Assembly: GCA_945878135.1 (NCBI GenBank)
Contig: CAMDUL010000007.1
Span: forward strand, 31,598 to 95,597
DNA length: 64,000 nucleotides
Reading direction: 5' to 3'
DNA from: Chthoniobacter flavus
GTDB lineage: Bacteria > Verrucomicrobiota > Verrucomicrobiia > Chthoniobacterales > JACTMZ01
Part shown: positions 6,124 to 35,074 of the stretch, piece after piece
Layout of the letters: every line of letters starts with the position of its first letter
Position numbering within the stretch: position 1 is the first letter of the stretch
Program-made: the position numbers and the translations under genes
Notes under the pieces: generated by a model
What the model saw: only the letters and a program-made list of their open reading frames with translations
What the model was told of the DNA's origin: nothing
The model's database searches: none

Positions 6124-7929
6124 TCAAGGCCCCGCATGGCGCAGCGGCGCGATGAGGGCGTATTCGGCGGGGGTAAGCAGGTCGGGGTCGATGTCCCGGA
6201 CCAGCACAAGCGAGTTCCGGTCGCCGGAAGCGTGGAGCACGGCGGCGCTGACGGCGCGCAGGCCGGGCGGCAATTGATCGACGATGACATCGAAACCGTC
6301 GAAGACCGCGAGAGCCCCTTTGGTCTGACCCGCTTTGAGCAAAGCCAGCGCGTGGTTGAAACGCGCGCCGAGATGGCTCGGATCAGCCGCCAGGGCTTCG
6401 GCGGTGACGGAGAGATCCACGTTCTTTCCGTCGAGAATTGCCAGGTAGCGTTCGTAGACCCTCACGGACGTCGCGTCCGGCGAGGACTGCCGCGCCGCGG
6501 CGTAGGCCCGGTCGAGCGTGGCGAATTGCCCGCTCCGCCCGAACCGGTCGCGGGCCAGTCCGAAGGCGCCATCGGCTTGGTTCGCCTCGCCGCACAGGTC
6601 GACGATGGCCTCGTCGACCAGCGCGCGCAGACCCTGCTGGTCGGCCGATGTGACGGCCGATCCGAAACGGCCCTCGGCGGCCGAGGTCCGCAGTGCCATG
6701 CGGACCAGTTCGTCGGCCTCACCGGCGCGCCCCTGCTCGCGTGCGGCGATGGACCTGATCATGAAGCGCGCGGACTCGGGAACTTCGCCCGGCGACTCCG
6801 ACAATTGGAGGACTTCCTCCCAGCGGCCGAGACCGGCCAGCGCCGAGGCCCGCAGGCGGAAAAGGGCTTCGTCCTTCGCGGCATCGGCGCCGGACACCGC
6901 GGCGAGGACTTGTTCGTTCATGCCCTGCCGCAGCATCCAGCGGGCCAAACCAGCCTGCCGTTGCGGGGGAGCGCCGACGTAGAGGGGCTGGAGCTTTTCA
7001 TAGAGCGCCTCGGGTGTTTCCTTCCCGGAGGCGGCGAGGAAGGCGGCGGCGGGCAGGAGAGCGGGGTTGGTCTCGATCGGGTTGCGCCAGGCGGCCTCGG
7101 CCCATTCGGCTTTCTTGGGCGCGGAAAAATACGGGGCTTCCAATCCCAGGGCCAGCGCCTCGTCGCCCGAGGGCGTGCCGGCCAAGCCGTCGATGAGCGC
7201 GGTCATTTCCGCACCGGCGGCCAGATCTCGCGGGCCCACCTTGGCACGGTCGGCAAGGAAGAGACCATGCCGCGCGGCGAGCAATCGCAGGAGACGCAAC
7301 CTCAGGCGCGGCTCGTCGGACGCGGCGGCGGACGCGCGCGCTTGGGCGATGGCTTGCTCCACGTTGCCCCCGCGCAAGCTGCGGTGCGAGCGCAGTTCGG
7401 CCGCCCGGCCGGATGAACCCTGCGCCTCCAAGGCGGCGATCGCGGCGGCGAACTGCCCGTCGTCGCCGTGCGCCGTCATGATCTCGGCGCGGGCATCGAC
7501 CTCGTCCGCGGTCAGGGCCGGTCCGTCGGGGATGGTTTCCCACATCGCCACCGCCTCCGGGTTGCCGAGGCGGCTTTCGATCACCGCCGTGGCCCGCTTC
7601 ACCGCCGGCAGCTCCGGTCGCAGGTTGGCCGCCGCGGCGATCTGCCGCCGGGCGAAATGCCAACTGCCCGCGTCCGCACTGGCCAGCGCCTTGGCCGTGA
7701 GATCCCGCGCCCGCCAACCGGTGAAAAGATAAAACCCGAGCGCGCCGAGAAGGAGCAGCGCGAGGAGCAGCAACGGCGTCAAAACCCAGAGCCGGCGCAG
7801 GAGCGCGTCGATCAACAGGGGATGATCGTTGCTCAATAGCGGCCCGGTCGCCTCCCGCCACCAGCGGAGGAACGGACGGCCGGGTGCGGCCAGGACACGG
7901 CGCAAGGCAGAGGGCTTTCCGTCGGACAT
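6124..7929 (-). CDS. membrane-anchored TPR-like helical repeat protein
   Basis: 601 aa. One N-terminal TM helix (LWVLTPLLLLALLLLGALGFYLF) followed by an Ala/Leu/Arg-rich helical repeat region. No catalytic motif recognised. Confidence 0.6.
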   Translation of the reverse strand: MSDGKPSALRRVLAAPGRPFLRWWREATGPLLSNDHPLLIDALLRRLWVLTPLLLLALLLLGALGFYLFTGWRARDLTAKALASADAGSWHFARRQIAAAANLRPELPAVKRATAVIESRLGNPEAVAMWETIPDGPALTADEVDARAEIMTAHGDDGQFAAAIAALEAQGSSGRAAELRSHRSLRGGNVEQAIAQARASAAASDEPRLRLRLLRLLAARHGLFLADRAKVGPRDLAAGAEMTALIDGLAGTPSGDEALALGLEAPYFSAPKKAEWAEAAWRNPIETNPALLPAAAFLAASGKETPEALYEKLQPLYVGAPPQRQAGLARWMLRQGMNEQVLAAVSGADAAKDEALFRLRASALAGLGRWEEVLQLSESPGEVPESARFMIRSIAAREQGRAGEADELVRMALRTSAAEGRFGSAVTSADQQGLRALVDEAIVDLCGEANQADGAFGLARDRFGRSGQFATLDRAYAAARQSSPDATSVRVYERYLAILDGKNVDLSVTAEALAADPSHLGARFNHALALLKAGQTKGALAVFDGFDVIVDQLPPGLRAVSAAVLHASGDRNSLVLVRDIDPDLLTPAEYALIAPLRHAGP

Positions 7930-9750: not shown

Positions 9751-9823
9751 GTCGCGGCGGCCTGTGACCGCCGGACACATTGCTCTTTGATCCAAGGCAC
9801 CGGCGGTCACAGACCGCCGCTAC
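9751..9823. repeat. paired REP-like palindromic element (two 24-nt arms, 25-nt spacer)
   Basis: GTCGCGGCGGCCTGTGACCGCCGG (9751..9774) and CCGGCGGTCACAGACCGCCGCTAC (9800..9823) are inverted copies with 2 mismatches. Each arm is itself a hairpin (CGGCGGTC-nnn-GACCGCCG). Related copies lie at 14392, 60013 and 63284. Confidence 0.75.
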
Positions 9824-10554
9824 AACCGGCCCAACGCCCGCACGGCTCTGGCCACGTCTTCCGGCGCATCGACGCCGATGGAGGGGCGCTTCACCACGAT
9901 CACGCCGATGGCCACGCCGTGCTCGAGCGCGCGCAACTGTTCGAGCTTTTCCGCTTTCTCCAGCGGCGTCGGTCTCCACTTCACGAAATCGAGGAGCACT
10001 TTGCGCCGGTAGCCGTAGATGCCCTGGTGGCGGAGGTATTTGGTCCGGCCGCTTCCGTCGCGGTCGTGCGGAATGACGCTGCGCGAGAAATAGAGCGCGC
10101 GGCCGGCGAGGTCGGTGACGACTTTGACCACGTTCGGATTGCGGAGGTCGGCGGCCGTGGAGACCGGGTTGGCGGCGGTGACCATGCCGAGCCCGGGATC
10201 TTCGCGCAAGGCCCGGACCAGGCGGTCGATGGTGGACGGCGCGATGTCCGGTTCGTCGCCCTGCACATTGAGGACGATCGACGAGGGTTCGAGATGGCGC
10301 GCCACTTCGGCCAGCCGGTCGGTGCCCGTCGGATGCTTGGGTGAAGTCAGCGCGACTTCCGCGCCGAAATCGAAGGCGGCCCCGGCGATGCGCATGTCGT
10401 CGGTCGCCACGATAACTCGGTCGACGGACTTGGCGCGCCGCGCGCGTTCCCAGACGTGCTGTACAAGCGGTTTGCCACGCAGCTTGACCAGCGGTTTGCC
10501 GGGAAAACGCGTCGATGCCCAGCGGGCGGGAATGACGGCGGTTACTTCGGACAT
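9820..10554 (-). CDS. kdsB: 3-deoxy-manno-octulosonate cytidylyltransferase (CMP-Kdo synthetase)
   Basis: Internal ATG 10554 of ORF 9820..10686. AVIPARWASTRFPGKPL N-terminus plus the VQGDEP and GIYGYR motifs. The stop codon TAG lies inside the REP arm. Confidence 0.9.
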   Translation of the reverse strand: MSEVTAVIPARWASTRFPGKPLVKLRGKPLVQHVWERARRAKSVDRVIVATDDMRIAGAAFDFGAEVALTSPKHPTGTDRLAEVARHLEPSSIVLNVQGDEPDIAPSTIDRLVRALREDPGLGMVTAANPVSTAADLRNPNVVKVVTDLAGRALYFSRSVIPHDRDGSGRTKYLRHQGIYGYRRKVLLDFVKWRPTPLEKAEKLEQLRALEHGVAIGVIVVKRPSIGVDAPEDVARAVRALGRL

Positions 10555-11084
10555 CCCGCCTCCCGCAAAATGAAATCCGCGGCGTAACCGATATCCGGCA
10601 CGACCGCATCGGCGCCGCAATCGAGATGGTCTTTGCCGTGCCCGGTCTCGACCAGCACGGTGCGCAGCCCGGCATTCCGGCCGCACTCGATGTCGGAGGT
10701 TTTATCCCCGACGATCCACGAGCGGGAGAGTTCGAGTCCGTGCTCGCGCGCGGCTTCCTCGAGCATGGCGGTCGACGGTTTGCGGCGCGCGCTCGGCTGG
10801 TCCGGCCCGCTCTCATCGTAGTAGGCGCCCGTGATCTCCGCGGGCTTGAGTTGCCAGAGCACCTCCTCGTGCACGCGGCGGTAATCGTCATGCGTGAAGT
10901 AGCCGCGGCCGATGCCGCTCTGGTTGGTCACGATGACCAGGACGAAGCCCGCCGCCGACAACTTGACCAGTGCCTCGGCCGCTCCCTCGATGGCGCGGAC
11001 CTGCGAGGGGTTCGCGCAGTAGTGGACCTCGTGGATGAGGGTGCCGTCACGGTCGAAAAAAACAGCCGGACGGTCAGCGGGCAT
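10542..11084 (-). CDS. gmhB: D-glycero-D-manno-heptose 1,7-bisphosphate phosphatase (HAD, GmhB type)
   Basis: 180 aa. FFDRDGTL, VTNQSGIGRG and VGDKTSD motifs. Confidence 0.85.
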   Translation of the reverse strand: MPADRPAVFFDRDGTLIHEVHYCANPSQVRAIEGAAEALVKLSAAGFVLVIVTNQSGIGRGYFTHDDYRRVHEEVLWQLKPAEITGAYYDESGPDQPSARRKPSTAMLEEAAREHGLELSRSWIVGDKTSDIECGRNAGLRTVLVETGHGKDHLDCGADAVVPDIGYAADFILREAGCPK

Positions 11085-12090
11085 GGTTTTCGAAGCTGGC
11101 GAGGAGTTCGTCCGGGGTCAGCGTGGCCGTGCCGAGCTTGCCGACCACGACACCGCTGGCGTGGTTGGCGATCTCCGAGGCCTCGACCGGCGTGGCCCCC
11201 GCGCAGAGGGCCAGCGTGTAAAGCGCGATGGCCGTGTCGCCCGCGCCGGACACGTCGAAGACTTCGCGCGCACGCGTCGGGGTGTGGTGACGCCGCCCGT
11301 CCTTGGTGAAAAGCATCATGCCGAGTTCGCTCAAAGTGACGAGCAACTGGTCGGCGTCCCATTTGGCGAGGAGGGATTCGCCGACTTGGAGAAGTTGCCG
11401 GTCTTCGAGCGGGTGGGCCGCGGGTTCGCTCCACGGGACGCCGGCCGCGGCGAAGGCCTCGTGGCGGTTGGGCTTGATGACGGTCGCGCCGCGCCAGGCG
11501 AGCGGATTGCCGGGATTCGGATCGACGGCCACCAGGCAACCGGCGGCGCGGGCGCGACCGATGATGGCCGCGGACATTTCCTCGTCGAAAAATCCTTTGC
11601 CGTAGTCCTCGAGGATGACGCCATCCGTTTCCGGCAGGGCGGCTTCCAGCGCGGCGAGCAGAGCCCGGCGTTGGGCCGGCCCCGCGGGCTCGGCCAGTTC
11701 GCGGTCGACCCGCACGACCTGCTGCGTGCGCGCGATGATGCGCGTCTTCACCGTGGTCGGACCCGCGCGGGTCACCACGCCGTCCGTCCCGATGCCGCCG
11801 GCGGCGAGCAAGTCGCGCAGGCGGACGCCGGCCGCATCCTCGCCGGCCAGGCCGAGCACGGACGTCCTGGTCGTGAACTCGTGGAGGTTGCGGGCCACAT
11901 TGGCCGCGCCACCCGGATAGCAGGTCTCGCGGTCGACGGCCACGACCGGCACGGGAGCCTCGGGCGAAATACGCGAGACCTTGCCCCAGATGAACTCGTC
12001 GAGCATGAGGTCGCCCGCGACCAGAACGCGGCGGCCGGACATTGCCCGGATGATTTCCTGCAAGCGCGCGGCGCTGGGCACATGTTCCAC
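11074..12090 (-). CDS. hldE: D-glycero-D-manno-heptose-7-phosphate kinase (HldE/RfaE domain I only)
   Basis: Ribokinase-family motifs VLVAGDLMLDEF and DVSGAGDT. There is no adenylyltransferase domain. Start placed at GTG 12090 because RLQEIIRAMSGRRVLV looks like conserved N-terminal sequence. GTG 12081 and ATG 12042 are alternatives. Confidence 0.85.
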   Translation of the reverse strand: MEHVPSAARLQEIIRAMSGRRVLVAGDLMLDEFIWGKVSRISPEAPVPVVAVDRETCYPGGAANVARNLHEFTTRTSVLGLAGEDAAGVRLRDLLAAGGIGTDGVVTRAGPTTVKTRIIARTQQVVRVDRELAEPAGPAQRRALLAALEAALPETDGVILEDYGKGFFDEEMSAAIIGRARAAGCLVAVDPNPGNPLAWRGATVIKPNRHEAFAAAGVPWSEPAAHPLEDRQLLQVGESLLAKWDADQLLVTLSELGMMLFTKDGRRHHTPTRAREVFDVSGAGDTAIALYTLALCAGATPVEASEIANHASGVVVGKLGTATLTPDELLASFENHAR

Positions 12091-12127: not shown

Positions 12128-12952
12128 GTGAAATTTCCATCAATCGTGATTCCACGCCTCCTTTTCGTCCTGCTGCTCGGCCTATCCCCCGCCGTCGCGC
12201 AGAAGCCGGACAAGTCGATCGACTTGGGACAATTCCCGGCCGACACCGTCGAGAATGTCGTCGTCCCGGTGCCCAGCGAAATTTTCGCCGTCCTCGACAA
12301 GCTCGGCAACCCGAACTGGCGAGCCCAGCTCGGACCGGAAAAAAGCTACCCGGCGAGCCCGAACCGCGCGCAGGTCGCCCTCCTGCTCGGCACGGTCATT
12401 GCGGACGGTTTTGTCGCGGTGGAAGCCGAGGACAGCGAGCGCGTGAAGGAAATCGGCCGCAATGTCCTGACCCTCGCCGAGGCGATCAACGTGCGCAAAT
12501 CCGTGGTGGCCCGCAGCAACAGCATTATCCAGAAAGCCGACGCCCGCCAATGGAACGCGGTGCGCCGCGAGTTCGACGGTGCACTGCAGGATGTCAACAA
12601 AGCGATGATCGAACTGAACGACGAACAACTGGCCCAATTGGTCAGCCTCGGCGGCTGGCTGCGCGGCACCGAGGTCCTCACGTCCATCGTGAAGGAGAAA
12701 TACTCCCGCGACCGCGCCGAACTCCTCTACCAGCCGCTGCTCGTCGACTATTTCAGCGGTCAGCTCGACCGCATGAGCCCGCGCCTGCGCGGCCAGCCGC
12801 TGGTCGGCGAAATCCGCCGCTCCCTCGGACGCATCGGTCCCCTCATCAAAAAATCCCCGCCCGACGGCATCACCCCCGAGACGGTGGCCGAAATCAACGA
12901 CCTCTCGGTGCAGATGGTGGATTTGATCCGCGCCAAAGCCGGCCGACCATGA
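12128..12952 (+). CDS. secreted helical protein of unknown function (module copy 1, large subunit)
   Basis: In-frame GTG 12128 (or 12146) of ORF 11981..12952 gives the signal peptide KFPSIVIPRLLFVLLLGLSPAVAQ. Paralogous to 21926..22711 (shared ADG[FY][VI]AVEA[EQ]D, VK..G and W.A.R.E blocks). Confidence 0.7.
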   Translation: MKFPSIVIPRLLFVLLLGLSPAVAQKPDKSIDLGQFPADTVENVVVPVPSEIFAVLDKLGNPNWRAQLGPEKSYPASPNRAQVALLLGTVIADGFVAVEAEDSERVKEIGRNVLTLAEAINVRKSVVARSNSIIQKADARQWNAVRREFDGALQDVNKAMIELNDEQLAQLVSLGGWLRGTEVLTSIVKEKYSRDRAELLYQPLLVDYFSGQLDRMSPRLRGQPLVGEIRRSLGRIGPLIKKSPPDGITPETVAEINDLSVQMVDLIRAKAGRP

Positions 12953-13401
12953 AACTCCTCGCCCCCGCTTTCCGCCGTTCCGCCGCCGCCGTCTTGGCGC
13001 TTCTCCTCGCCGCGCCCGCGGCCCGGGCGTTCGTGGACGACGCGCTTTCTTTCGCCTACGAAGCGGCCAATCCCTATGCCGAGCGCGGCTGGATCATCCG
13101 CGAGGACGCCTGGGGCGGCGACCTCGGCGCGGGCGACAAAAAGCGCGTGGCCGCCCAGCTTTTCCGCGGCAACAGCTACATGTTCTTCCTGGCCACCGAC
13201 GTGGACAACGCCAGCCTGCGCGTCAACATCTACGACGCGCAAGGCAACCTGGCGGAAAGCAAATCGTGGCAGCGGGGGCGCTTCGCCTACGCCGAAATCA
13301 AGCCCCGCTCGACGGGCACCTACAACGTCATCGTCGAAGTCACGTCATCGCCGGAAGAACGCACCGGCTGGGCGCTGGTCTACGGGTTCCAGCGGAAATA
13401 A
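12949..13401 (+). CDS. secreted beta-rich protein of unknown function (module copy 1, small subunit)
   Basis: ATG 12949 overlaps the upstream stop (ATGA). Signal peptide MKLLAPAFRRSAAAVLALLLAAPAARA. Paralogous to 21468..21929 (LF.GN.Y.F, YD.QG, STG.Y.V..E). Confidence 0.7.
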   Translation: MKLLAPAFRRSAAAVLALLLAAPAARAFVDDALSFAYEAANPYAERGWIIREDAWGGDLGAGDKKRVAAQLFRGNSYMFFLATDVDNASLRVNIYDAQGNLAESKSWQRGRFAYAEIKPRSTGTYNVIVEVTSSPEERTGWALVYGFQRK

Positions 13402-13408: not shown

Positions 13409-14377
13409 ATGGAGAGCACGACGCTCCATTTCGACAACGCCCGCGCCGCCTCCGCGCTCTACCACAACGACGAGCGTTTGCTCCGGGAGTTGGAACAGCG
13501 CCTCGGCGTGCAGGTGGCCGCGCGCGAGGGCTGGATCCGCATCGAAGGCGACAAAGCCAAGACTGCCCGCGCCGCGCAGGTCTTCACCGAACTCGACGAG
13601 GCCCGCCGCGGGGGCGCGGTCATCGGCAAACAGGAATTCCGCTACGCCCTGCAAACCGCGGAGGAAGGCGCAACCCCGGCCCGCATCACCGAACTCGCCG
13701 CCGAGCGCATCGTCTGCTCGCCGCGCAAGCCGCCGGTCATCCCGAAAACGCCCGGACAACGCGACTACGTGCGCGCCATCCGCGAGCACGACATCGTCTT
13801 CGGCGTCGGGCCCGCCGGCACGGGCAAGACCTACCTCGCCATGGCCATGGCCGTGGCCGCGCTGAAGAAGGAGCAGGTCGGCCGCATCGTCCTGACCCGC
13901 CCCGCGGTCGAGGCCGGCGAGGCCCTCGGTTTCCTGCCCGGCGCGCTCGAGGAGAAAATCCTGCCCTATCTGCGCCCGCTCTACGACGCGCTCTATGACA
14001 TGCTCGAGACCGACGAGATCCAGAAATTCATGGACCGCGGTGTCATCGAAATCGCGCCGCTGGCCTACATGCGGGGACGCACCCTCAACCAGTCGTTTGT
14101 CGTCCTCGACGAAGCCCAGAACACGACGGCCGAGCAGATGTTCATGTTCCTGACGCGGCTGGGCAACGAATCGAAATGCGTCATCACCGGCGACCGCACG
14201 CAGATCGACCTGCCGCGGCACAAGCGCTCGGGTCTGCTCGAGGCGCTGGAAGTCCTGCAGGACGTGGAGGGCCTCGCCATCCGCAGCTTGAGCCGCAAGG
14301 ACGTGGTCCGCCACCCGCTCGTGCAAAAAATCATCAATGCCTACGAGCAGCACCGGGAAGCCGCGCCGGAGGCGTGA
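13409..14377 (+). CDS. phoH: PhoH family ATPase
   Basis: Internal ATG 13409 of ORF 13076..14377. Walker A GPAGTGKTYLAMA, plus the LDEAQN and VITGDRTQIDLP motifs. Confidence 0.92.
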   Translation: MESTTLHFDNARAASALYHNDERLLRELEQRLGVQVAAREGWIRIEGDKAKTARAAQVFTELDEARRGGAVIGKQEFRYALQTAEEGATPARITELAAERIVCSPRKPPVIPKTPGQRDYVRAIREHDIVFGVGPAGTGKTYLAMAMAVAALKKEQVGRIVLTRPAVEAGEALGFLPGALEEKILPYLRPLYDALYDMLETDEIQKFMDRGVIEIAPLAYMRGRTLNQSFVVLDEAQNTTAEQMFMFLTRLGNESKCVITGDRTQIDLPRHKRSGLLEALEVLQDVEGLAIRSLSRKDVVRHPLVQKIINAYEQHREAAPEA

Positions 14378-17699: not shown

Positions 17700-18839
17700 T
17701 TAGCGCGGCTCCGCGCCTTTGGCAACCCACCCGACCCCGCGGAGCGCCGCGGTCAGCCCGGCGGCCTTGTGCAAGGTCTCCTCGTATTCGAGGACCGGGT
17801 CGGAATCGGCCACGATGCCCGCCCCCACCCCGTAGGTGGCGCGGCCGTCGCGCACCACCAAAGTGCGGATGGCGATGCTGAAAGCCGCCCGGCCGTCGGC
17901 GTGGAAGAATCCGAGGGCGCCGGTGTAGATCCCGCGGGCGGACGGTTCGAGTTCGGCGATGATTTCCCGCGCGCGTTTTTTCGGCGCGCCGGTGACCGAG
18001 CCACCCGGGTAGCAGGCATGCACGGCGTCCACGGGAGCCACGTCGGCCCGGAGGCGCCCTTCGATGGTCGAGACGAGATGGTGCACCTGGGCGAAGGTTT
18101 CCAACTCGCAGAGGCCGGTGACACGCACACTGCCGTAGGCACAGACCTGCCCGAGGTCGTTGCGCTCCAGGTCGGTGATCATGACCAGTTCGGCCCGCTC
18201 CTTGGGTGAAGCCAGCAATTCGCGGGCGGCGGCTGCGTCGTCCGCGCCGCGCGGACGCGTCCCTTTGATCGGCCGGGTCACGATGAGCCGTCCGTCGATT
18301 TTCAGGAAGCATTCCGGCGATGCGCTGAGCACCGAGGTGTCGCCGAGGCGGAGAAAGCAGGAGAACGGCGCGGGGCTCGCCGCGCGCAGGCGGGGATAAA
18401 ATGCGGCCGCATCCCCGGTCCACGGCGCCGTGAGCGTGTGCGTGAGGTTGACTTGGTAGATGTCTCCCGCCGCGATGTAGTCGTGCGCGCGGCGCACCAA
18501 CCGCACCCAATGATCGCGCTCGAGGCCCGGCTGGAAAGCGGCCGGCTGTCCGGTCCAAGGTCCTCCGGCCGCCTCCTCCGCGGACAAACCCGCGTCCTCG
18601 CGAAAGACGCCGAAACGGAAACCGCCGTCGTAGTCGAACCAGCCGCCGAGAAAGCCGCCGGGCGCGTCCCGGCGCAAGACCTGCAGGGCCGACTCCAGTT
18701 GCGGCCAGTCCTCCGGTCCGCCCTCGATCACCGAAGCGGGCGCGACGCCCGAAAGCGGAGGGCCGAAACCGGGGCCGTCGAAAAGCGCCATCTCTTGGGC
18801 GGGGCCGGAACCGGAAACGGGCATGAAGTCCGATCTCAT
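17700..18839 (-). CDS. pabB: aminodeoxychorismate synthase component I (chorismate-binding enzyme)
   Basis: 379 aa. The PECFLK, RPIKGTRPRG, ITDLERNDLG and YPGGSVTGAPK motifs belong to the PabB/TrpE family. The short N-terminal domain favours PabB. Confidence 0.82.
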   Translation of the reverse strand: MRSDFMPVSGSGPAQEMALFDGPGFGPPLSGVAPASVIEGGPEDWPQLESALQVLRRDAPGGFLGGWFDYDGGFRFGVFREDAGLSAEEAAGGPWTGQPAAFQPGLERDHWVRLVRRAHDYIAAGDIYQVNLTHTLTAPWTGDAAAFYPRLRAASPAPFSCFLRLGDTSVLSASPECFLKIDGRLIVTRPIKGTRPRGADDAAAARELLASPKERAELVMITDLERNDLGQVCAYGSVRVTGLCELETFAQVHHLVSTIEGRLRADVAPVDAVHACYPGGSVTGAPKKRAREIIAELEPSARGIYTGALGFFHADGRAAFSIAIRTLVVRDGRATYGVGAGIVADSDPVLEYEETLHKAAGLTAALRGVGWVAKGAEPR

Positions 18840-18889
18840 CCGGAAAGCCTTTCCAATTCAAGCAGCCCCGCGCTAACCTCCGCGGCAAG

Positions 18890-19621
18890 ATGTCGAACCG
18901 GCGAGCGATCACGCTGACTTTCGCGGCTTTCGCGGTGTTCCATCCGGCGGCGGCGCAGGATGAAGCGCAGCCTTTGCCTCCGGTCGTTCCCGAGGAGACA
19001 CCGGCCGCGACGGCCTCCCCGAACCCGGACGCTGCCGCGGCGGAAGCCCCGAGCGCCGAGTTGATCATCGACGCCGAGGAAGAGGTGCTCGAGGAGCCGG
19101 CCATGGAGCCCGGCGAGCAGCCCTTGCCGCCCATGGACGGCGACGGGGCTTTGCCCGGCGAGGAAAACATTTTCGGCGCGGACCTTTTCGGCGGCCCGGA
19201 CATGTTCATGCCGCCCATGCCGGATATCCCGGAGGTGCCGCCGATGATCGAGGACCCGAAGGAACTCGAGCGCAAGATGCGGGTCAAACTGCGGCGGATC
19301 AAAGCCCGTCTCGGGCAGGACCCGCAACTGATGGAATTGCAGGCCATGGCGCAGCGCGCCCCGACCCCCGAGGACCATCGCGCCGCCCGCCGCGCCTACT
19401 ACGCGCTCTTCTTCGAAAAAGTGCGCAAGGCCGATCCGGCCCTCGCGGACTTCGCCGACAAAACGGAGCAAGGTTCGCTCGCGGGCCTCTACCAGACACG
19501 CATCGAGCCGACCCTCGCGCTGAATCCCCCGCCGCAACCGCAACCGCAGGAAAGATTCATCCCGCGTCAGCAATTCCCCGACGTCCTGGCCTTGGACGAG
19601 GAAGCCATCCCGCTTCCCTGA
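18890..19621 (+). CDS. secreted acidic Pro/Glu-rich protein of unknown function
   Basis: 243 aa. Signal peptide (ITLTFAAFAVFHPAAAQ), a Pro/Glu/Ala-rich N-half and a helical C-half. GC3-rich codon usage. Confidence 0.6.
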   Translation: MSNRRAITLTFAAFAVFHPAAAQDEAQPLPPVVPEETPAATASPNPDAAAAEAPSAELIIDAEEEVLEEPAMEPGEQPLPPMDGDGALPGEENIFGADLFGGPDMFMPPMPDIPEVPPMIEDPKELERKMRVKLRRIKARLGQDPQLMELQAMAQRAPTPEDHRAARRAYYALFFEKVRKADPALADFADKTEQGSLAGLYQTRIEPTLALNPPPQPQPQERFIPRQQFPDVLALDEEAIPLP

Positions 19622-19627
19622 CTTCAT

Positions 19628-20997: not shown

Positions 20998-21459
20998 TCA
21001 GCGCGAGAGGTCGGTCTGCCGAAGCAGGCGGAAATTCCGCCCCTCCAGCACGGCGCTGGCGCACTCGAGGTCGTCGGTGTGGATGGCGACGAGCGGACGG
21101 CCCCGCGGACGCACGAGCAGCGTGTAGCTGAAGAGGATGTTCACTTCCGCCTCGAGCAAGGCGGCGAGCAGGCGCGGCAGGTCGGAGGCGCCTTCCTCCA
21201 ATTCCGCCACGACCACCTCGCAGACCCCGAAAGCGATGTCGTTGCGGTCGAAAAGTTCCTCCAGCAGGTCGGGATCGCTCACGATGATGCGCGCGATGGA
21301 GGTTTCCGAGGAATCCTGGATGCTGAGCGCGAGCACGACGACGCGGGCCGCGTTGAGCATTTTGACCACCTCCATGAGCGCGCCGACGCGGTTGGTCAGG
21401 AAGACGGAATACTGGCGCACGGCGGGGCCCTGCAGTTTTTCGGTGGTGGCCGTGGTCAT
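20998..21459 (-). CDS. tandem ACT-domain protein
   Basis: Internal ATG 21459 of ORF 20998..21747 (153 aa). There are two beta-alpha-beta-beta-alpha-beta-like halves (YSVFLTNRVGALMEVVKML... and VVVAELEEGASDLPRLLAALLEAEVNI...). Confidence 0.65.
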   Translation of the reverse strand: MTTATTEKLQGPAVRQYSVFLTNRVGALMEVVKMLNAARVVVLALSIQDSSETSIARIIVSDPDLLEELFDRNDIAFGVCEVVVAELEEGASDLPRLLAALLEAEVNILFSYTLLVRPRGRPLVAIHTDDLECASAVLEGRNFRLLRQTDLSR

Positions 21460-21467
21460 GGGACGGG

Positions 21468-21929
21468 TTACTTGAAAAGGTAGAGGAGACAGAAATCCGC
21501 CGCCGGACCGCGGGACGTCTCGATTTCCACAACATAGCGCCCGGTGGAGGCGGCTGTCACGCCGGCAGCGGAGAGCCCGGGACCCTCGTGCGCCAGCACC
21601 CGGACGGCCTCGCCCTGCGGATCGTAGAGCATGATGGACGGACGATCCCCCGGCGCATCCGCGGCGGCGCAGAACCAGTATTGGTTGCCGGCGAAAAGAT
21701 TGACCGCGAGGCGGCGCGGGCGGCCGGGTTCGAGGCGGCCGGACCAATAGCCGTCGCGCAGGCGGAAGCCGTCGTTGGCCAGCGCTCCTCCGAATTCCAG
21801 CAGGCGTGCGCGCAAGGACGGGGCCGATTCGGGCTTGGACGGGGAAGAAGGCGCCTCGTCTTGCGCCCGGCCCGTGCCCGCGAGGAGCAAACCGAGGAGA
21901 AGAAGTCTCAGGCCGCGTTTCATGGTCAT
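21468..21929 (-). CDS. secreted beta-rich protein of unknown function (module copy 2, small subunit)
   Basis: ATG 21929 overlaps the upstream stop (ATGA); ATG 21923 is an alternative. Signal peptide MKRGLRLLLLGLLLAGTGRAQ. Paralog of 12949..13401. Confidence 0.7.
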   Translation of the reverse strand: MTMKRGLRLLLLGLLLAGTGRAQDEAPSSPSKPESAPSLRARLLEFGGALANDGFRLRDGYWSGRLEPGRPRRLAVNLFAGNQYWFCAAADAPGDRPSIMLYDPQGEAVRVLAHEGPGLSAAGVTAASTGRYVVEIETSRGPAADFCLLYLFK

Positions 21930-22711
21930 TTGGATCCGAGTTGCATCAGGAGTTCGGCGCAAGCGGCCTGGATGGCCCCGGCCTGCTCGAGATCCGGCAA
22001 GCCCCCGCCGTCGACAGTCATCAGCTCCCCGACCGAGGCGAAAGCGTTGCCCACCCGCTCCACCACGGGCCCGGTGCGGACTTTCTCCGGAAGGTCGCGC
22101 AATAGACCGTGAAGATAAGCGATCAGCTCTTTCTGTCCGAGCAAGGAAGCGGCGGAAGGTTCGCCGGACAATTCCGCGGCGCGGCCGCCCGCCTGGAGCG
22201 ATCGCATCCAGGCCCCGGCGAGGATGAGCGAGGACAGAGCCTCGTCGCGCTGGTCGGCCATGGCGCGGCGCACCTCGTTAGTCGTGGCTTCCAATTCCTC
22301 GCGCAGGGCGAACCAATCATTCTTGTCGGCAAAGTCGCTGATGCTCTTGCCGCGCGCCAACACGTTCTCGCCGACACCGAGGGCGCGGGCCAGCGCGACA
22401 ATGTCCTTGCCGGTGTTCTTGACCTGCTGGCCGTCCTGCGCTTCGACCGCGATATAGCCGTCCGCCACGAGCGCCCCGAGGTTGAACGCGGTCTGCGGGC
22501 GCGTCGGAAAACTCGTCGGGCCGGGGTCGCGGTAAAAGGCGGCCCAGTCCGGACGCGATACCTTGTCGATCGCGCCGAAAAATTCCGCCGGGGTGGGCAC
22601 CGTGACCGCGGGCAGGCTCTCGGCCTTGGCCCGCTGCGATTCGGTCAGCGCGGCGAGGCCCGCCGCCGGAACGAGGACGGCCAGCAGCAGCAAAGCCGCG
22701 GTGTTGCTCAT
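21926..22711 (-). CDS. secreted helical protein of unknown function (module copy 2, large subunit)
   Basis: Internal ATG 22711 of ORF 21926..22819 gives the signal peptide MSNTAALLLLAVLVPAAGLAA. ATGA overlap with the upstream Cys-rich peptide gene. Paralog of 12128..12952. Confidence 0.7.
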   Translation of the reverse strand: MSNTAALLLLAVLVPAAGLAALTESQRAKAESLPAVTVPTPAEFFGAIDKVSRPDWAAFYRDPGPTSFPTRPQTAFNLGALVADGYIAVEAQDGQQVKNTGKDIVALARALGVGENVLARGKSISDFADKNDWFALREELEATTNEVRRAMADQRDEALSSLILAGAWMRSLQAGGRAAELSGEPSAASLLGQKELIAYLHGLLRDLPEKVRTGPVVERVGNAFASVGELMTVDGGGLPDLEQAGAIQAACAELLMQLGSK

Positions 22712-22887
22712 GGCCTGCAAATAGAATCCCGGTCCTTCCCGGCGGCGAGCCGGATTTTGGGCGCGACCGACGGACACCCGCCGCAACAGCCGCGGGATCC
22801 CTTCCACCGCCGCCAGCACCGCCGGGCCAGATAAGCGGCTGAGCCTCCGACCGCGAGACCGACCAGGATGATTTCCGCCGTGCTCAT
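22708..22887 (-). CDS. FeoB-associated Cys-rich membrane peptide
   Basis: 59 aa: MSTAEIILVGLAVGGSAAYLARRCWRRWKGSRGCCGGCPS.... It has one TM helix, then a basic stretch and a CCGGC cluster, as in the small peptides found after feoB. ATG 22887 overlaps the feoB stop (ATGA). Confidence 0.7.
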   Translation of the reverse strand: MSTAEIILVGLAVGGSAAYLARRCWRRWKGSRGCCGGCPSVAPKIRLAAGKDRDSICRP

Positions 22888-25046
22888 CCGCCCAACCAAC
22901 GCGTGCCGAGCTGATAGGTCAAGACCGCTCCCAGCCACGCAAGCAACGTCATGTAAACAAATCCGAACACGGCCCAGCCCCAGTTGGCTTCCTTGGCCAT
23001 GACAGCCACCGTGGCGCCGCACTGCAGGCAGAGGGCGAAGAAGACCATGACAGCCAGCGCGACCGGAACGGTGAAGACCGGTTGTCCGGCCCGGTCGCCA
23101 TGCGTCCAAAGATCCCGCCCCAGCGCGAAGCGGAGGTCGCCCGACCCGGCGTCGACCTCCCGCCCGATGCCGTAGATGGTGCCGAGCGTGGCGATGATGA
23201 CTTCGCGGGCCGGAAAACTGGCCAGCACGCCGACGGTGATTTTCCAATCGAATCCGGCCGGTGCGAAAACCGGTTGCACGGCGCGACCGGCCCGCGCGAG
23301 GAGGCTTTGTTCGAGGTAAGCCGCCTCGACCGCGTGTTCAACCGCGGACGGATCGTTCAAGGCGGACAAAGCCGCGACCGTCCGCTCGCGCACTTCCGGC
23401 GGCCGCGGGAAATAAACGAGCGCCCAAATGATGACGGTCATGGCGAGGATGACCGTCCCCGCGCGCACCAGGAACTCGCGGGCCCGCTCCCACAGGCGCC
23501 AGAGGATGTCGCGCAAACGCGGGCGGCGGTAGGGAGGCATTTCGAGGAGAAAGGGTTGGGTGCGCGTGCGGAGCACGAACCTGTTCAGGCTCCAGGCCAC
23601 GGGCACAGCCACGACGAGTCCGAGGAGATGCGCGGCGAAGAGCACGGCGCCGGCGACCACGGCCCCGTGGGACGGCTCGATGAACGCGCCGATCATCAAG
23701 GTGTAGACCGGCAAGCGGGCCGAGCAACTCATCAACGGCGAAACAAGAACGGTGGTCAACCGCGCGCGTGGGTCCTCGATCGTGCGCGCGGCGAGGATGC
23801 CCGGAACGGCGCACGCGTAGCTCGAGAGCATGGGGACGAAACTTTTCCCGTTCAGGCCGCACCAGCCGAACATTTTATCCATGAGAAACGCGCCGCGGGC
23901 CATGTAACCGGTGTCTTCGAGCAGGGCGATGAAGAAGAACAAGACGAGAATCTGCGGGAGGAAAACGAGAACCCCGCCGACCCCGACGACCAGTCCGTCG
24001 ACGACAAGGCTCTGCACCGCGGGCCACGCCGCCAACCATGGGGCGACCCTCTCCTGCACCGCCGCCACGGTGACCTCGATGAGTTCCATGACCGGACCGG
24101 CCCACGCGTAGATTGACTGGAAGACGAGGAACATCAGCAGCGCGAAAATGAGCAGGCCCCACACGCGGTGGGTCAGCACGGCGTCGATCCGCTCGGTCCG
24201 CGTCCGGCGGCGCTTTTCCGGGAAACGCACGGCATCGGCCGTGACGTGTCCAAGGTGCTCGTAACGCAGAAGCGCTTCGGCCGGGACCGGTTGCAGGCCC
24301 GCGGCGGAGAGGATGTCGCGCGCTGCGGAGAGCAACGGTTGCGGATCGGCCTCCGGCGGCCAGCCGGCACGCTCGAGCACGGCGCTGCGCTGGTCGAAGA
24401 GAATGCGGCGCAACTCGCCGGGTTCAAGAGGTGCGACACCTTCTTTCTCCAGACCGTCGGCAAGGTAATGCACCGCGCGTTGCACCGCCTCGGGCCACGG
24501 CACCTGCGCCATGAGCAAACGGCCGTCGACCGCGCGGAGCACCGCTTTTTCCAGCGCGCCAGACCCCTCGCCCCTCGTAGCCACGGTCCGCACCACCGGC
24601 ACTCCGAGGTGACGGGCCAGCAGTGCCGCGTCGATGTGGATGCCGGTCTGCTCGGCGGCGTCGGACATGTTGAGGGCGATGACCAGGGGCAGTCCGAGAT
24701 CGGCCACCTGCGAGGCGAGGAAAAGGTTCCGCACGATGTTGGACGCGTCGACCACGCAGATGACCGCGTCGGGCCGGGCCTCGCCGGCGAGGTGTCCGGT
24801 GAGAAAATCCAGCGCCACGCGTTCGTCCGGCGACGAGGCCGCGAGACTGTAGGCCCCGGGGAGATCGACCAGCGTGGCGGCGCGGCCGCCGGGATGCCAC
24901 GCCCCGTATTTTTTCTCCACCGTGACCCCGGGATAGTTGCCGATTTTCTGGCGCGATCCGGTCAGACGATTGAAGAGCGTGGTCTTGCCCGTGTTGGGGT
25001 TGCCGACCAGGGCAATGCGCAAAGGACGGGAATCCGGCCGGCTCAT
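22884..25046 (-). CDS. feoB: ferrous iron transporter FeoB
   Basis: 720 aa. N-terminal G-domain (GNPNTGKTTLFNRLTG, DLPGAYSL) followed by a polytopic membrane domain. Confidence 0.96.
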   Translation of the reverse strand: MSRPDSRPLRIALVGNPNTGKTTLFNRLTGSRQKIGNYPGVTVEKKYGAWHPGGRAATLVDLPGAYSLAASSPDERVALDFLTGHLAGEARPDAVICVVDASNIVRNLFLASQVADLGLPLVIALNMSDAAEQTGIHIDAALLARHLGVPVVRTVATRGEGSGALEKAVLRAVDGRLLMAQVPWPEAVQRAVHYLADGLEKEGVAPLEPGELRRILFDQRSAVLERAGWPPEADPQPLLSAARDILSAAGLQPVPAEALLRYEHLGHVTADAVRFPEKRRRTRTERIDAVLTHRVWGLLIFALLMFLVFQSIYAWAGPVMELIEVTVAAVQERVAPWLAAWPAVQSLVVDGLVVGVGGVLVFLPQILVLFFFIALLEDTGYMARGAFLMDKMFGWCGLNGKSFVPMLSSYACAVPGILAARTIEDPRARLTTVLVSPLMSCSARLPVYTLMIGAFIEPSHGAVVAGAVLFAAHLLGLVVAVPVAWSLNRFVLRTRTQPFLLEMPPYRRPRLRDILWRLWERAREFLVRAGTVILAMTVIIWALVYFPRPPEVRERTVAALSALNDPSAVEHAVEAAYLEQSLLARAGRAVQPVFAPAGFDWKITVGVLASFPAREVIIATLGTIYGIGREVDAGSGDLRFALGRDLWTHGDRAGQPVFTVPVALAVMVFFALCLQCGATVAVMAKEANWGWAVFGFVYMTLLAWLGAVLTYQLGTRWLGG

Positions 25047-25291
25047 CGGGCGGTGAACGGTTCCACGCGCACGGCCGCGGCGTCGGCTTTGCGCAGACTC
25101 AGTCGCATGCCGAGGAACTCCACCTCGACGGGATCCCCCAGCGGCGCGACCCGCACCACGGTGATCTCCGTGCCGGGCAAGAGTCCCAGGGCGAGCAATC
25201 GCGGAACGGCGGGATGTCCATCCTCGCCGGATTGCACGCGACCGCGTTCACCGGGCGGCAGCGCGGCCAGCGAAATCACGGCTTCACTCAT
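25043..25291 (-). CDS. feoA: FeoA family protein
   Basis: Internal ATG 25291 of ORF 25043..25501 (82 aa). SH3-like FeoA pattern: LAALPPGERGRV...RLLALGLLPGTEITVVRVAPLGDPVEVEF. ATGA overlap with feoB. Confidence 0.85.
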   Translation of the reverse strand: MSEAVISLAALPPGERGRVQSGEDGHPAVPRLLALGLLPGTEITVVRVAPLGDPVEVEFLGMRLSLRKADAAAVRVEPFTAR

Positions 25292-25559
25292 CGCGCACCG
25301 CGCGCCGGGCACGAACTTCCGCCTCGCGCAGGGCGCAGACCCGGACACAGCCCAGCATGCAACGGCGCAAGGCCACACAACCGTTCCGGCAGCGGACCAT
25401 GACCGGATCGCGGCCGGAAAGGATTTCCACCTCCGCCCCCTCATGGAAGCCGGCGCGCCGCAGGTATGGAGCCCACTCGCTCGTGTCGTCCACCGAGACA
25501 ACCAGCTTACTCACGCGACGGGGACTTTCCTCAAGAGTCATGACGGGCTGGAATTGCAT
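25284..25559 (-). CDS. second FeoA-like protein
   Basis: 91 aa. A divergent FeoA-like core (VVSVDDTSEWAPYLRRAGFHEGAEVEILSGRDPVMVRCRNGCVAL) with an 8-nt overlap with feoA. ATG 25541 is an alternative start. Confidence 0.55.
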   Translation of the reverse strand: MQFQPVMTLEESPRRVSKLVVSVDDTSEWAPYLRRAGFHEGAEVEILSGRDPVMVRCRNGCVALRRCMLGCVRVCALREAEVRARRAVRDE

Positions 25560-28281: not shown

Positions 28282-28824
28282 TCAGGCCATGATGGCCCGG
28301 GCGATTTCCTCCTCCTTGGCTTCGCCGAAGAGCCGGTCAACCAAGGCCAAGCCGAATTCGAGAGCCGTCCCCGCCCCGCGCGAAGTGATGATCAGGCCGT
28401 CTTCCATCACCCGCTCGCCGGTCTGGGCCCCGGGCAACTCATTGGCCGCGGAAAAATGCGCCGTGAAGCGCTTGCCCTCGAGCAAGCCAGCGTCTTCGAG
28501 CACAAGCGGACCGGCACAAATGGCCGCCACGGGCTTGCCGGCTTGGACGAAACTTTTGGCCAGTGCGGCCGGGCGTCCGTCAGCGCGCAACTTGGCCACC
28601 GCCGCGCCTCCGGGAAGAAAAAGCAGGTCGAAGTCCTCTGCTTCCGCGTCACCGAGAGTTTGGTCCGCGTGCAACACAAGGTTATTGCGGCCGGTGACAT
28701 GAATCCCCCCGCCCACCGCGGCCAACACGACCTCCGCCCCGGCCCGCCGCAAAACGTCAACCGGTGCGACGAGCTCCAACTCCTCCACGCCGTCAGCCAC
28801 GAGGCAGAGGACGCGTTTGGTCAT
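28282..28824 (-). CDS. DJ-1/PfpI family protein
   Basis: Internal ATG 28824 of ORF 28282..29571 (180 aa). Nucleophile elbow AAICAGP and GGAAV motifs. ATGA overlap with glyA. Confidence 0.85.
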
Positions 28825-30101
28825 GGCAGCGGGTAGCGCGAGGTGAAAGCGTGCACGCGTTTCATCACCGCGGCCAGCGCCGCGGCGTCGTCCGCCTTTT
28901 GCAACGCCGCGTGGATGAGGTCGGCGATTTCCATCATCTCCTCCTCCTTCATGCCGCGCGTGGTCATGGCCGGCGTGCCGATACGAATGCCGCCCGTCTT
29001 CATGATCGGCTCGGTGTCGAACGGGATGGCATTTTTGTTCACCGTGATCCCCGCGTGGTCGAGGGCTTCCTGGGCCTGCTTGCCGTTGAGGCCTTTCGGA
29101 CGCAAATCGACGAGCAGCACGTGGTTGTCCGTGCCTCCGGACACGATGCGGTAACCGAGCATGGACAGGCGGGCGGCCAGCGCGCGGGCGTTGGACACGA
29201 CCTGGGCGGCGTAGGCCTTGAAGGACGGTTGCAGCGCTTCGCGGAAACAGACCGCTTTGGCCGCGATGACGTGCATGAGCGGTCCGCCCTGCACGCCGGG
29301 GAAAACCTGCCCGTCGACCGCCTTGGCGTATTGCGCCTTGCAAAGAATCACGCCGGAGCGCGGTCCGCGCAGGCTCTTGTGCGTCGTGCTGGTGATGAAA
29401 TCGGCATACGGAACCGGACTCGGATGCGCGCCGCCGGCCACGAGGCCCGCGATGTGCGCCATGTCGACGAAAAGCAACGCGCCCGCATCGTCGGCGATGC
29501 GGCGCATGCGCTCGAAATCGATGATGCGGGAGTAAGCCGAGGCCCCGGCGGTGATCATTTTCGGACGGCATTCCCGGGCCAGCTTGGCCAGATTGTCATA
29601 ATCAATCGTCTCGGTTTCCGGGCTGACCCCGTAGTGCACGATGTCGTAGAGCTTGCCGGAGAAATTCGCCTTGTGCCCGTGGGTGAGGTGTCCCCCGTGC
29701 GCCAGATCCATGGTGAGGATGCGGTCGCCGACAGCGAGCGAGGCGAAGTAAACAGCCGTGTTGGCCTGGCTGCCGCTGTGCGGTTGCACATTGGCGTGGT
29801 CGGCGCCGAACAATTCCTTGGCGCGTTCGATGGCCAGACTTTCGACCACATCGACGTGCTCGCACCCGCCATACCAGCGGCGCCCCGGGTAACCCTCGGC
29901 GTATTTGTTGGTCAGCGCGGAACCCTGCGCCTCGCGCACGGCCCGGCTGGTGAAATTTTCCGAAGCGATGAGCTCGATATTCTCGAACTGGCGCCGCTCC
30001 TCGTCGTGGATGGCCGCGGCAACGGCCGGGTCGGCCGATTCCAGCGCGGGAATGTCGGAGAGTTCGAAAGCGGCCGGTCGGCCGGTGGCGGTGGTGTTCA
30101 T
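28821..30101 (-). CDS. glyA: serine hydroxymethyltransferase (module of a 578-codon fused ORF)
   Basis: From internal ATG 30101: [23 protein letters not shown] and the PLP-lysine motif [12 protein letters not shown]. There is no stop codon between it and the upstream phosphatase module. Confidence 0.95.
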
Positions 30102-30557
30102 GGATGGTTTTTTTCCGGTGATGATTTCGATGACCGAAGGCAGGGCGGCCCGGATGTCCTCCTTGCAAAGCTCGTAAGTTTCGCGCGTGCCTCCTATGGG
30201 ATCCTTTACGTCCGAGCGGCCGCCTTTGGCTGCCTCCTTGAAGCGCAGCAACCGTGCTTTCGGTGCCATCTCGGGAAAAAGCAGGAGCAACATATCGAGG
30301 TGGTCCTGCGTCATGGTGAAAATGTGGTCCGCCTGCCGGAGCAGATCCGCGTTGACCGGCTGGCTGCGGATCCCGGAAATATCGATCCCCTCCCTGCGCA
30401 GCACCTCGATGGCATGGGCGCTCGGCGGTTGTCCCTTGCCGGCCCCCAACCCCGCCGAAAACGCCTCGACCTTGTCCCCCAGCGCACGCCGCAGCAGGCC
30501 CTCGGCCATCGGGCTGCGGCAGACATTGCCGGTGCAAATGAAGAGGACTTTTTCCAT
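30102..30557 (-). CDS. low-molecular-weight protein tyrosine/arginine phosphatase module, reads through into glyA
   Basis: ATG 30557 gives [20 protein letters not shown] (C-X5-R-S P-loop) and the DVKDPIGG Asp loop. It is in frame with glyA through ...[11 protein letters not shown], with an A7 tract at 30108..30114. Confidence 0.85.
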
Positions 30558-30659
30558 GGTTCCGCGCGTTGTCGCGCCAGCGTAATGCACGGGCGGGCCA
30601 AGTCAACCTGACGGGAAATCTTGCACCCGCCGTCCGCCCGTGTTCGGCTCATCGGTGTC

Positions 30660-32868: not shown

Positions 32869-33842
32869 GGTGCGGCAGGAGGAGCCACCGCAGCCGGTTC
32901 GGCTGGTGCAGGCGCAGGAGCGGGAGGCTCCGCGGAGGCCGGAGCAGTTGTCGCCGGCGCGACAATCTGTTCTATGACAGACTCGGCCGTCTGAGGCACC
33001 GTCTCAGCCGGTGCTCCCTCCGGCGCACTCGAAACCTCATTGGCCGGCGCGCCGATCTGCGGCTGATTATCCGCGACCTGCACGGGCTGTTCAGCCACCG
33101 GCGCCGCCGGGGCTTTTGGTTTGGAACGGGCCCGCGGGCGCGGCTTGGCCGTCACCTCGGCGACGACCACGCTGTCCGTGCCGAGCGGCCCGCCGAGAGC
33201 GGGGGCGAAGGAATCCACCGTGACCGGCGAACCGACATCGAGGATCGAGAAAAGTTGCATCGCCGTGTCTTTCTTCAGCCGGATGCAACCGTGCGAGGCG
33301 GTGCGGTGTCCGGGCACATTGCCGACGTGCATGCCCACCCCGGTGGTGGTCATGCGCATCCAGTAAGGCATCGGTGCGCCGACAAAACGCCCGCCCGCGG
33401 GCACGCCGTGGTCGCGCGTGTCGGCGTCGGAAACCACGGTGGAGCCGGAACCCGAGACGATGCGACCGTAGAGGTTCGAGGCGTGCTTCTCTTTTTTCTC
33501 GAGGATCTTGTAGGAGCCCTTGGGAGTCGGGTGGCTCGACTTCCCGGTGGCCACCGGAAAATCCATGGCCACGGCACCGTCGACCAGCAGGATGCCGCGC
33601 TGCTCGCGCAAGGCGATTTCCACCGCGGTGTTCTGCGCGGTGGCTTTGGCCAGCAGTTCCTCGTTGCGGAAAGTCTGCTTGCGCCAGCCGGGCTGGGTAC
33701 GGAAAGCGGCGTGGGCCTGGTTCTGCTTGGCGACTCTCTGCTTTTCCGCCCTCTGGCGGGTGTCTTCCACCACGGCGCAGCCCGGAAAAAGAAGAATGGC
33801 GGCGAAAAGCGAGGCGAGACGGGAGGGGGCGGACGTTTTCAT
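32865..33842 (-). CDS. L,D-transpeptidase (YkuD) lipoprotein with Pro/Ala-rich C-terminal tail
   Basis: ATG 33842 within ORF 32865..34841. Lipobox LLFPGC and catalytic HGCIRL motif. Its start overlaps the gspF stop by 1 nt. Confidence 0.85.
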   Translation of the reverse strand: MKTSAPSRLASLFAAILLFPGCAVVEDTRQRAEKQRVAKQNQAHAAFRTQPGWRKQTFRNEELLAKATAQNTAVEIALREQRGILLVDGAVAMDFPVATGKSSHPTPKGSYKILEKKEKHASNLYGRIVSGSGSTVVSDADTRDHGVPAGGRFVGAPMPYWMRMTTTGVGMHVGNVPGHRTASHGCIRLKKDTAMQLFSILDVGSPVTVDSFAPALGGPLGTDSVVVAEVTAKPRPRARSKPKAPAAPVAEQPVQVADNQPQIGAPANEVSSAPEGAPAETVPQTAESVIEQIVAPATTAPASAEPPAPAPAPAEPAAVAPPAAP

Positions 33843-35068: not shown

Positions 35069-35074
35069 GGCCGG

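Follow-up and report, generated by a model that had tools for sequence, protein, structure and literature searches.

The 64,000-nucleotide (nt) stretch of Chthoniobacter flavus DNA analyzed here (the window; contig CAMDUL010000007.1, GC content 65.7%) contains two copies of a two-gene module, whose products we call L, predicted to be helical, and S, predicted to be a beta-sandwich. We conclude that L and S very probably constitute an obligate exported pair, and that this pair corresponds to no described system. The first copy, L1-S1, lies on the plus strand and the second, L2-S2, on the minus strand at a distance of about 9 kb (Table 1).

A coupled and probably exported gene pair

A preliminary description of this stretch had argued that L and S function as a pair, and had called for an examination of the pairing in related genomes. 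Wherever a genome locus extends far enough downstream, the gene directly after L is S (79 of 79; the 80th locus ends within L), and the same is true of 56 of 56 metagenome loci with downstream sequence (P0389-related, 38-86% identity), which gives a total of 135 loci with enough downstream sequence to be assessed. The same order is found in distant or low-GC loci (L088, L090, L092, L094-L097 and L099, GC content 27-63%), in which the downstream proteins are 143-196 amino acids (aa) long and, where scored (L088, L090, L094 and L096), match the S profile with E values of 1e-15 to 1e-20. The proposed partnership is strongly supported by this conservation across relatives, with the exception of one orphan clade. 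In this P0472-like clade, both loci examined (L089:137-1030 and L093:8001-8993) have an L without S beside it, and the N-terminal motif of this L has decayed. L093 comes from a Chthoniobacterales metagenome-assembled genome (MAG), which raises the possibility that certain genomes have a third L paralog that is unpaired.

Translation of the two genes is coupled, either by an ATGA overlap or by a spacing of 1-8 nt. The junctions are concentrated between -4 and +8 nt, and the end of L often contains a Shine-Dalgarno-like AAGGAGG. In the window, the stop codon of L1 shares 4 nt with the start codon of S1 (ccATGAaa), and the L2/S2 junction is likewise an ATGA, with a further in-frame ATG 6 nt downstream. 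In addition to adjacent genes, we identified natural L-linker-S fusions of 414-463 aa, which fall into four clusters at 50% identity (P0442, P0460, P0411 and P0426) and recur in independent samples, with as many as 13 contigs carrying them. The fused proteins have lost the second signal peptide, and their genes share the hrpB / L-S / ACT_8 neighborhood with unfused L2-S2 pairs. Fusions of this kind are Rosetta-stone evidence for L and S acting as one unit.

Both genes of the module are present in exactly two copies each according to a six-frame profile search of the window. L1 and L2 are 34% identical over 206 aligned residues (E = 2e-39), and S1 and S2 are 30% identical over 105 (E = 1e-13); the two copies are the result of an ancient duplication in which both genes were duplicated together. 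These observations agree with the preliminary description, in which the open reading frames (ORFs) of L1-S1 and the large-then-small paralogous pair on the minus strand, with its own ATGA, had been read correctly, and in which the sequence blocks listed as common to the copies coincide with conserved alignment columns of L and S. The large numbers of homologs given below show that these are real genes and not chance ORFs.

Table 1. Genes of the L-S module and of its neighborhoods. Positions are those of the window, except for the last row, where they are those of the named loci.
Feature	Position	Strand	Remarks
L1	12128..12952	+	274 aa; GTG start at 12128, TGA stop at 12950-12952
S1	12949..13401	+	150 aa; ATG start at 12949
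L2	21926..22711	-	261 aa; L1 paralog with predicted signal peptide; A2 profile E = 2.8e-90
S2	21468..21929	-	153 aa; S1 paralog with predicted signal peptide; A1 profile E = 1e-65
phoH-like ATPase	13409..14377	+	7 nt past S1 stop; Pfam PhoH, E = 3.8e-94
kdsB, gmhB-like HAD phosphatase, PfkB-family (HldE-type) kinase	9820..12042	-	Pfam; divergent from L1
ACT_8 (ACT domain pair)	20998..21462	-	154 aa; 5 nt past S2 stop; PF19571, E = 7.8e-15
feoA, feoB, FeoB-associated Cys-rich peptide	22708..25559	-	Pfam; directly upstream of L2
Cys-rich membrane peptide, CCGGCP	22708..22887	-	59 aa; between feoB and L2
ABCG-like exporter	L092:4411-7839; L096:1-3084; ends of L088 and L094		L-S pair always follows

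All four proteins begin with a putative signal peptide, as had been noted for L1 and S1: MKFPSIVIPRLLFVLLLGLSPAVAQ in L1 (about residues 1-25), MKLLAPAFRRSAAAVLALLLAAPAARA in S1, MSNTAALLLLAVLVPAAGLAAL in L2 and MKRGLRLLLLGLLLAGTGRAQ in S2. The assignment is based on the layout of the four N-termini, each with a basic n-region, a core of hydrophobic residues and small residues at the cleavage site, together with a count of hydrophobic 10-mers among homologs. An N-terminal hydrophobic 10-mer is found in 117 of 120 homologs of L1, 119 of 120 of S1 and 115 of 120 of S2 (about 97%). Lipobox-like motifs are nearly absent from the same sets of homologs (120 each), and without a lipobox a lipoprotein identity for L and S was rejected.

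The mean p-distances of L (0.36) and S (0.33) are similar to those of PhoH (0.30) and PfkB (0.365). The two proteins thus evolve at the pace of PhoH and PfkB, and this suggests a housekeeping rather than an arms-race role.

Folds and families of L and S

The AlphaFold2 model of S1 has a predicted local distance difference test score (pLDDT) of 88.6 and consists of the signal peptide, a helix spanning residues 25-45 and, across residues 49-149, a sandwich of eight strands. Searched against the PDB with Foldseek, it gives 43 matches at E ≤1e-3. The top matches are to the C-terminal jelly roll of the subtilisin Tk-SP (9ues and 3afg, E values of 6e-6 to 1e-5); the collagen-binding domain (CBD) of ColH (3jqw) is matched with an E value of 1.5e-5 and a TM-score of 0.69, the CBD of ColG is matched as well, and the PPC domain from B. 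anthracis (5sv5) is matched at 1.2e-3. Further fold matches are to the KP-43 C-domain, GOLD domains, PliG and C-CPE. The model therefore depicts S as a PPC/CBD-like beta-sandwich with one helix in front.

The PPC-type assignment suggested for S in the preliminary description is correct for the fold, as judged by these Foldseek matches (E values of 6e-6 to 1e-3), and fails for membership of the Pfam family PF04151 (PPC), which is matched neither by S1 nor by S2 even at E values up to 10, by one of 111 S homologs (E = 0.044) and by none of seven distant S proteins. S has the same eight-strand sandwich as PPC domains, the CBDs of ColG and ColH and the Tk-SP jelly roll, with TM-scores of 0.6-0.7 on these small targets, and it has hallmarks in common with PPC-type domains ([LF]-x-G-N-x-Y-x-F, Y-D-x-x-G and [ST]-G-x-Y). 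PPC domains are C-terminal, and so is S in the natural fusions. Unlike a PPC domain, S is encoded by a stand-alone gene with its own signal peptide and possesses an extra N-terminal helix, and whereas PPC domains are peptidase appendages, the partner of S is the helical L, which has no peptidase signature. In NCBIfam the sole match is to FxLYD_dom (NF038353), over residues 83-109 of S1 and with 20 bits against a cutoff of 23, and S2 has none. Mature S1 contains neither Cys nor His. Taking sequence searches and model together, we regard S as a new sequence family inside a known fold class, that of PPC/CBD-like domains.

The L1 model (pLDDT 81.7, with residues 1-44 below 50) is all-helical, with helices across residues 48-268 that form a bundle of about ten. 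No significant match to it was found with Foldseek in the PDB or in BFVD; the best matches are designed helical repeats, with E values above 0.3 and TM-scores of at most 0.32. The structure search that had been proposed thus relates the S monomer to beta-sandwiches and the L monomer to nothing significant. Twelve residues are near-invariant in all clades of L (P47, R80, G88, A97, W142, D165, G175, W177, R179, L200, Q202 and L233). The N-terminal motif V-P-x-P-x-E-x-F...W (residues 45-64) is also strongly conserved, and it is predicted to be disordered. Six clades were grouped with S-paired loci, and in five of them the conservation of the motif residues P49, E51 and W64 lies at 84-100%; in the four-member clade linked to an ATP-binding cassette (ABC) transporter, E51 is conserved at 50%. 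All three are lost in the P0472-like orphan clade, and loss of the motif in a clade without adjacent S is what would be expected if the motif binds S. Mature L1, like mature S1, lacks His and Cys, and sites with a conserved Met, His or Cys are absent.

Neither protein had been assigned to a characterized family in the preliminary description, and the profile searches that it recommended leave both unassigned: Pfam gives no match for the four window proteins, for 50 L homologs or for distant members, and for the 111 S homologs nothing beyond the single PF04151 match described above. Sequence and profile searches of the PDB with L and S return only noise; two Tk-SP chains are among the top matches of the S profile, at E = 0.3-0.4, which is not significant. 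L is consequently an unannotated family without a detectable solved relative. In sequence databases, L1 has more than 4,400 homologs, S1 has 789 and S2 has 172; none carries a Pfam domain, and every one is named "hypothetical protein". Where a source is named, it is a Chthoniobacterales, Terrimicrobiaceae or Verrucomicrobiota MAG. Among genomes scanned at one per species, at least 566 encode a relative of L, and the best 80 of these are all from Chthoniobacterales-type Verrucomicrobiota. One of the 80, at 98% identity, is a Chthoniobacter MAG (CAZEYV010000047.1). An exhaustive search with the L profile recovers 1,070 clusters (50% identity) at E ≤1e-3, 759 of them at E ≤1e-10, and by BLAST the clusters form about seven clades.

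Some L homologs have long N-terminal extensions, which at least in P0389 are preceded by a signal peptide. We considered these extensions as extra domains and rejected the idea, as they match nothing in Pfam. Certain homologs of L and S (P0403, P0414, P0470 and L090:6788-7378) contain long insertions or tails that are acidic and of low complexity, with many D, E, A and P residues. A metagenome scan for the ABC-linked clade (alignment A4) returned patterns but no confirmed relative, and in the literature on Verrucomicrobia signature proteins and on bacterial TerB/ABCG exporters we found nothing relevant.

Conserved genomic neighborhoods of the module

The module is found in three kinds of neighborhood. 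In type A loci (L1, P0403-like and most P0389-related proteins), pyrG, kdsB, gmhB and the gene for a PfkB/HldE-type kinase are encoded on the opposite strand and diverge from L, which is followed by S and phoH. The divergent genes next to L1 make up a cluster for lipopolysaccharide (LPS) inner-core sugar nucleotides, and this cluster is the conserved context of L1. The divergent LPS-core arrangement is present in nearly all of the loci L001-L080 and in L099, L123, L131, L138, L149, L161 and L166, and the divergent kdsB-gmhB-PfkB order persists from 98% down to about 39% identity. PhoH is encoded after S in about 76 of the 79 genome loci, in 28 metagenome loci and in L099, and in type A loci its gene starts 5-20 nt past S; about 10 metagenome loci, with the LPS-core genes still in place upstream or with long flanks, have no phoH behind S. 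In the window, phoH is probably co-transcribed with L1-S1, and we regard it as a conserved downstream neighbor of the module.

In type B loci, which contain L2-like proteins including the fusions, the ACT_8 gene lies 3-20 nt past L-S. It follows the L2-type module in every such locus seen (after S in L001, L003, L015 and L081-L085, and after the L-S fusion in L086 and L087), and its product is cytoplasmic by sequence. The feo genes precede the L2-type module not only in the window but also in L001, L015 and L084, and in distant type B loci (L081-L083 and L086-L087) they are replaced by a divergent hrpB upstream of L. The Cys-rich peptide encoded between feoB and L2 scores 23 bits against FeoB_associated (PF12669), below the cutoff of 27, and has a counterpart of 50 aa at the same position in L084. 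Copy 2 is located within a run of at least 11 co-directional genes, most of them unrelated, with feoA at one end and a polysaccharide deacetylase gene at the other, and for this reason we give the feo adjacency little weight: the feo context of copy 2 is lineage-specific and probably not functionally tied to the module.

Type C comprises the P0481-like clade, in all four loci of which (GC content 37-63%) an ABCG/White-like half-transporter is encoded on the same strand, 110-290 nt upstream of the pair. The transporter, of about 1,100 aa, is composed of a TerB domain, about 300 unassigned residues, ABC_tran and ABC2_membrane. Its hydropathy predicts a periplasmic, hydrophilic loop of about 145 aa between transmembrane segments 5 and 6 and a cytoplasmic, positively charged C-terminus. 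The query ABC92 was compared with 70 metagenome loci, the 80 genome loci being outside that screen. It gave two matches, neither of them a linked ABC-2 exporter: one lies 7 kb off on the other strand, and the other, at L162, was rejected as an ABC link, as the upstream transporter is an unrelated NitT/TauT-type importer. No ABC-2 exporter is found among the called genes of L081-L087 or in the annotated flanks of the window. Between L, S and the downstream gene there is no terminator-like site above the shuffled background, and a promoter scan gave the same result.

Several other genes of the window may be recorded here. A 589-aa protein (28821..30590, minus strand) is a fusion of an N-terminal low-molecular-weight phosphotyrosine phosphatase/ArsC-like domain (PF01451) to serine hydroxymethyltransferase (PF00464), and the same fusion recurs, with 556 aa, in the related contig L084. 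An ORF of 1,867 aa (54413..60016, plus strand) resembles a tandemly doubled UvrA, with two matches to UvrA_inter, one to the UvrA DNA-binding domain and a number of ABC ATPase segments. The region 33842..39311 (minus strand) encodes a secretin, a GspE/PilB-type ATPase (MshEN) and a GspF/PilC platform protein, and represents a type II secretion system or type IV pilus cluster. Four minus-strand ORFs without a Pfam match have gene-like GC content by codon position: 6124..7929 (601 aa), 18836..19627 (263 aa), 40642..41922 (426 aa) and 44934..46058 (374 aa).

Possible roles of the L-S pair

L and S are probably the two subunits of one Sec-exported, soluble complex, periplasmic or secreted, in Verrucomicrobiota-type bacteria: an obligate heterodimer in which a helical scaffold is joined by a binding module of beta-sandwich fold. 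L would serve as the scaffold or as a ligand-binding subunit, and its conserved R80, W142, D165, W177, R179 and Q202 are of the residue types that line sugar or anionic-ligand sites; S may be a binding module held on L, perhaps through the disordered motif V-P-x-P-x-E-x-F...W. In the periplasm, the complex could handle a glycoconjugate of the envelope, be it LPS, a glycolipid or a polysaccharide, and so have an accessory part in the export or assembly of this molecule. ABC-2 exporters classically transport O-antigen, capsule, teichoic acids and glycolipids, and the suggestion of periplasmic glycoconjugate handling derives from the LPS-core genes and the ABC-2/ABCG exporter genes in the neighborhoods. 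Taken as a whole, an exported L-S complex with an envelope role is a tentative reading, which we consider somewhat more likely to fail than to hold. The envelope or export accessory role in itself is possible but rather doubtful, and we regard it as unlikely that L-S is the periplasmic part of a new Verrucomicrobiota envelope export or assembly pathway, in which a new helical fold joined to a PPC-like adaptor docks on ABCG-type ABC-2 exporters, with LPS, glycolipid or polysaccharide as cargo.

The known systems closest to this proposal are the auxiliaries of ABC-2 transporters, such as GldG-type ABC_transp_aux proteins and the LptC/LptA proteins of LptB2FG. The likeness consists in the position of the type C L-S pair behind an ABCG-like exporter, in the LPS-core neighbors of L1-S1 and in the fact that exported soluble proteins are concerned. 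L and S are, however, related neither in sequence nor in fold to GldG, LptA/LptC (OstA) or MlaC/MlaD, and the L and S copies beside the ABCG-like exporter match no auxiliary family in Pfam or NCBIfam. Most L-S modules are not next to a transporter, and the likeness would be a functional one, suggested by analogy.

A number of points weigh against the proposed complex and its envelope role. Contact between L and S is read from genes and monomer models alone, and function from gene neighborhood only. A mirror-tree comparison of L and S with PhoH and PfkB does not discriminate, as r is about 0.9 for every pair, and the picture of the orphan clade rests on two contexts. The direct downstream partners, PhoH and ACT_8, are cytoplasmic and uninformative on the envelope. 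The LPS genes are divergent, not operon partners, and in some loci about 1.2 kb away from L. The ABC-2 link is seen in four loci of one small clade, and the modules of Chthoniobacterales are not beside such a transporter. Finally, the conserved W, R, D and Q residues of L could be purely structural.

The other explanations assign different functions to the same proteins. L might be a secreted or periplasmic enzyme, acting for example on a glycan, with S as its substrate-binding module and the whole split into two coupled genes. The order of the fusions, L then S, mimics that of a catalytic domain followed by a C-terminal PPC domain or CBD, as in Tk-SP, KP-43 and ColG/ColH, and the conserved polar and aromatic residues of L, together with E51 in the paired clades, would suit such a function. 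L is however unlike any solved enzyme in structure or sequence, a helical bundle is more typical of scaffolds and binders, and the mature L1 has no His or Cys; we therefore consider a split enzyme quite unlikely. A protective inhibitor of lysozyme or protease in the periplasm, with S as the inhibitory sandwich, or a chaperone, is less probable still. Both proteins are small and, by prediction, soluble and exported, and the matches of the S model include the periplasmic lysozyme inhibitor PliG (4dzg, E = 2.4e-4, target TM-score 0.64) and protease-associated PPC and jelly-roll domains. S does resemble PliG/PliI in being a small exported beta-sandwich, but PliG is one among about 40 equally good generic matches to this fold, at 14% identity and without a sequence match to S. 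PliG works without a partner, whereas the pairing of S with L is obligate; the slow evolution of L and S, comparable to that of PhoH and PfkB, is not expected of an arms-race factor, and no conserved neighborhood contains a protease or hydrolase target.

A periplasmic metal accessory, as the iron partner of FeoAB in the case of copy 2 or more generally as a metal buffer or sensor, appears very improbable to us. It is favored by the position of L2-S2 directly after feoA, feoB and the FeoB-associated peptide, here and in L001, L015 and L084, by the TerB domain of the type C exporter, and by the Ca2+ binding of some S-like folds (the CBD and the Tk-SP jelly roll). EfeO/imelysin-like proteins of iron uptake also combine a beta-sandwich, which is cupredoxin-like, with a periplasmic helical M75 domain of about 250 aa, and copy 2 is likewise beside an iron transporter. 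Their domain order is, however, reversed relative to L-S, and PF09375 is not matched by any of 50 L members; an imelysin/EfeO identity for L was rejected, because L has no HxxE motif and the fold match is insignificant (3pf0, E = 0.89, TM-score about 0.2). Distant L2-type loci have hrpB instead of feo, copy 1 and more than 130 orthologous loci are not beside feo as a rule (FeoB is within reach once, in L104), copy 2 belongs to a long run of unrelated housekeeping genes, and the proteins offer no conserved Met, His or Cys site, His and Cys being absent from mature L1 and S1. A Feo accessory role was accordingly rejected, the feo adjacency being lineage-specific. The remaining explanation is that L and S are mere neighbors with independent products, kept side by side by conserved gene order. 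Gene order is generally well kept, the flanking kdsB, gmhB, pfkB and phoH are conserved too, and one L clade has no adjacent S. Nevertheless, the pairing survives three quite different neighborhoods at GC contents from 27 to 65%, the stop of one gene is coupled to the start of the next, the duplication involved both genes, and there are four distinct clusters of fusions at 50% identity. We regard independence of the two products as extremely improbable, and by the fusions it is close to excluded.

Verrucomicrobiota are abundant in soil, freshwater and gut, and their envelope biology is mostly inferred from Proteobacteria. If L-S is only a structural periplasmic pair, the main value of this analysis would be two new family definitions for annotation, and the L model raises the possibility of a fold without a solved relative. 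If the proposed export pathway is real, it would fill a role that is held in Proteobacteria by the unrelated Lpt, Mla or GldG-type accessories. Being widespread, constrained, duplicated and unannotated, the L-S module is a concrete candidate for an envelope function that is specific to the lineage of these bacteria.

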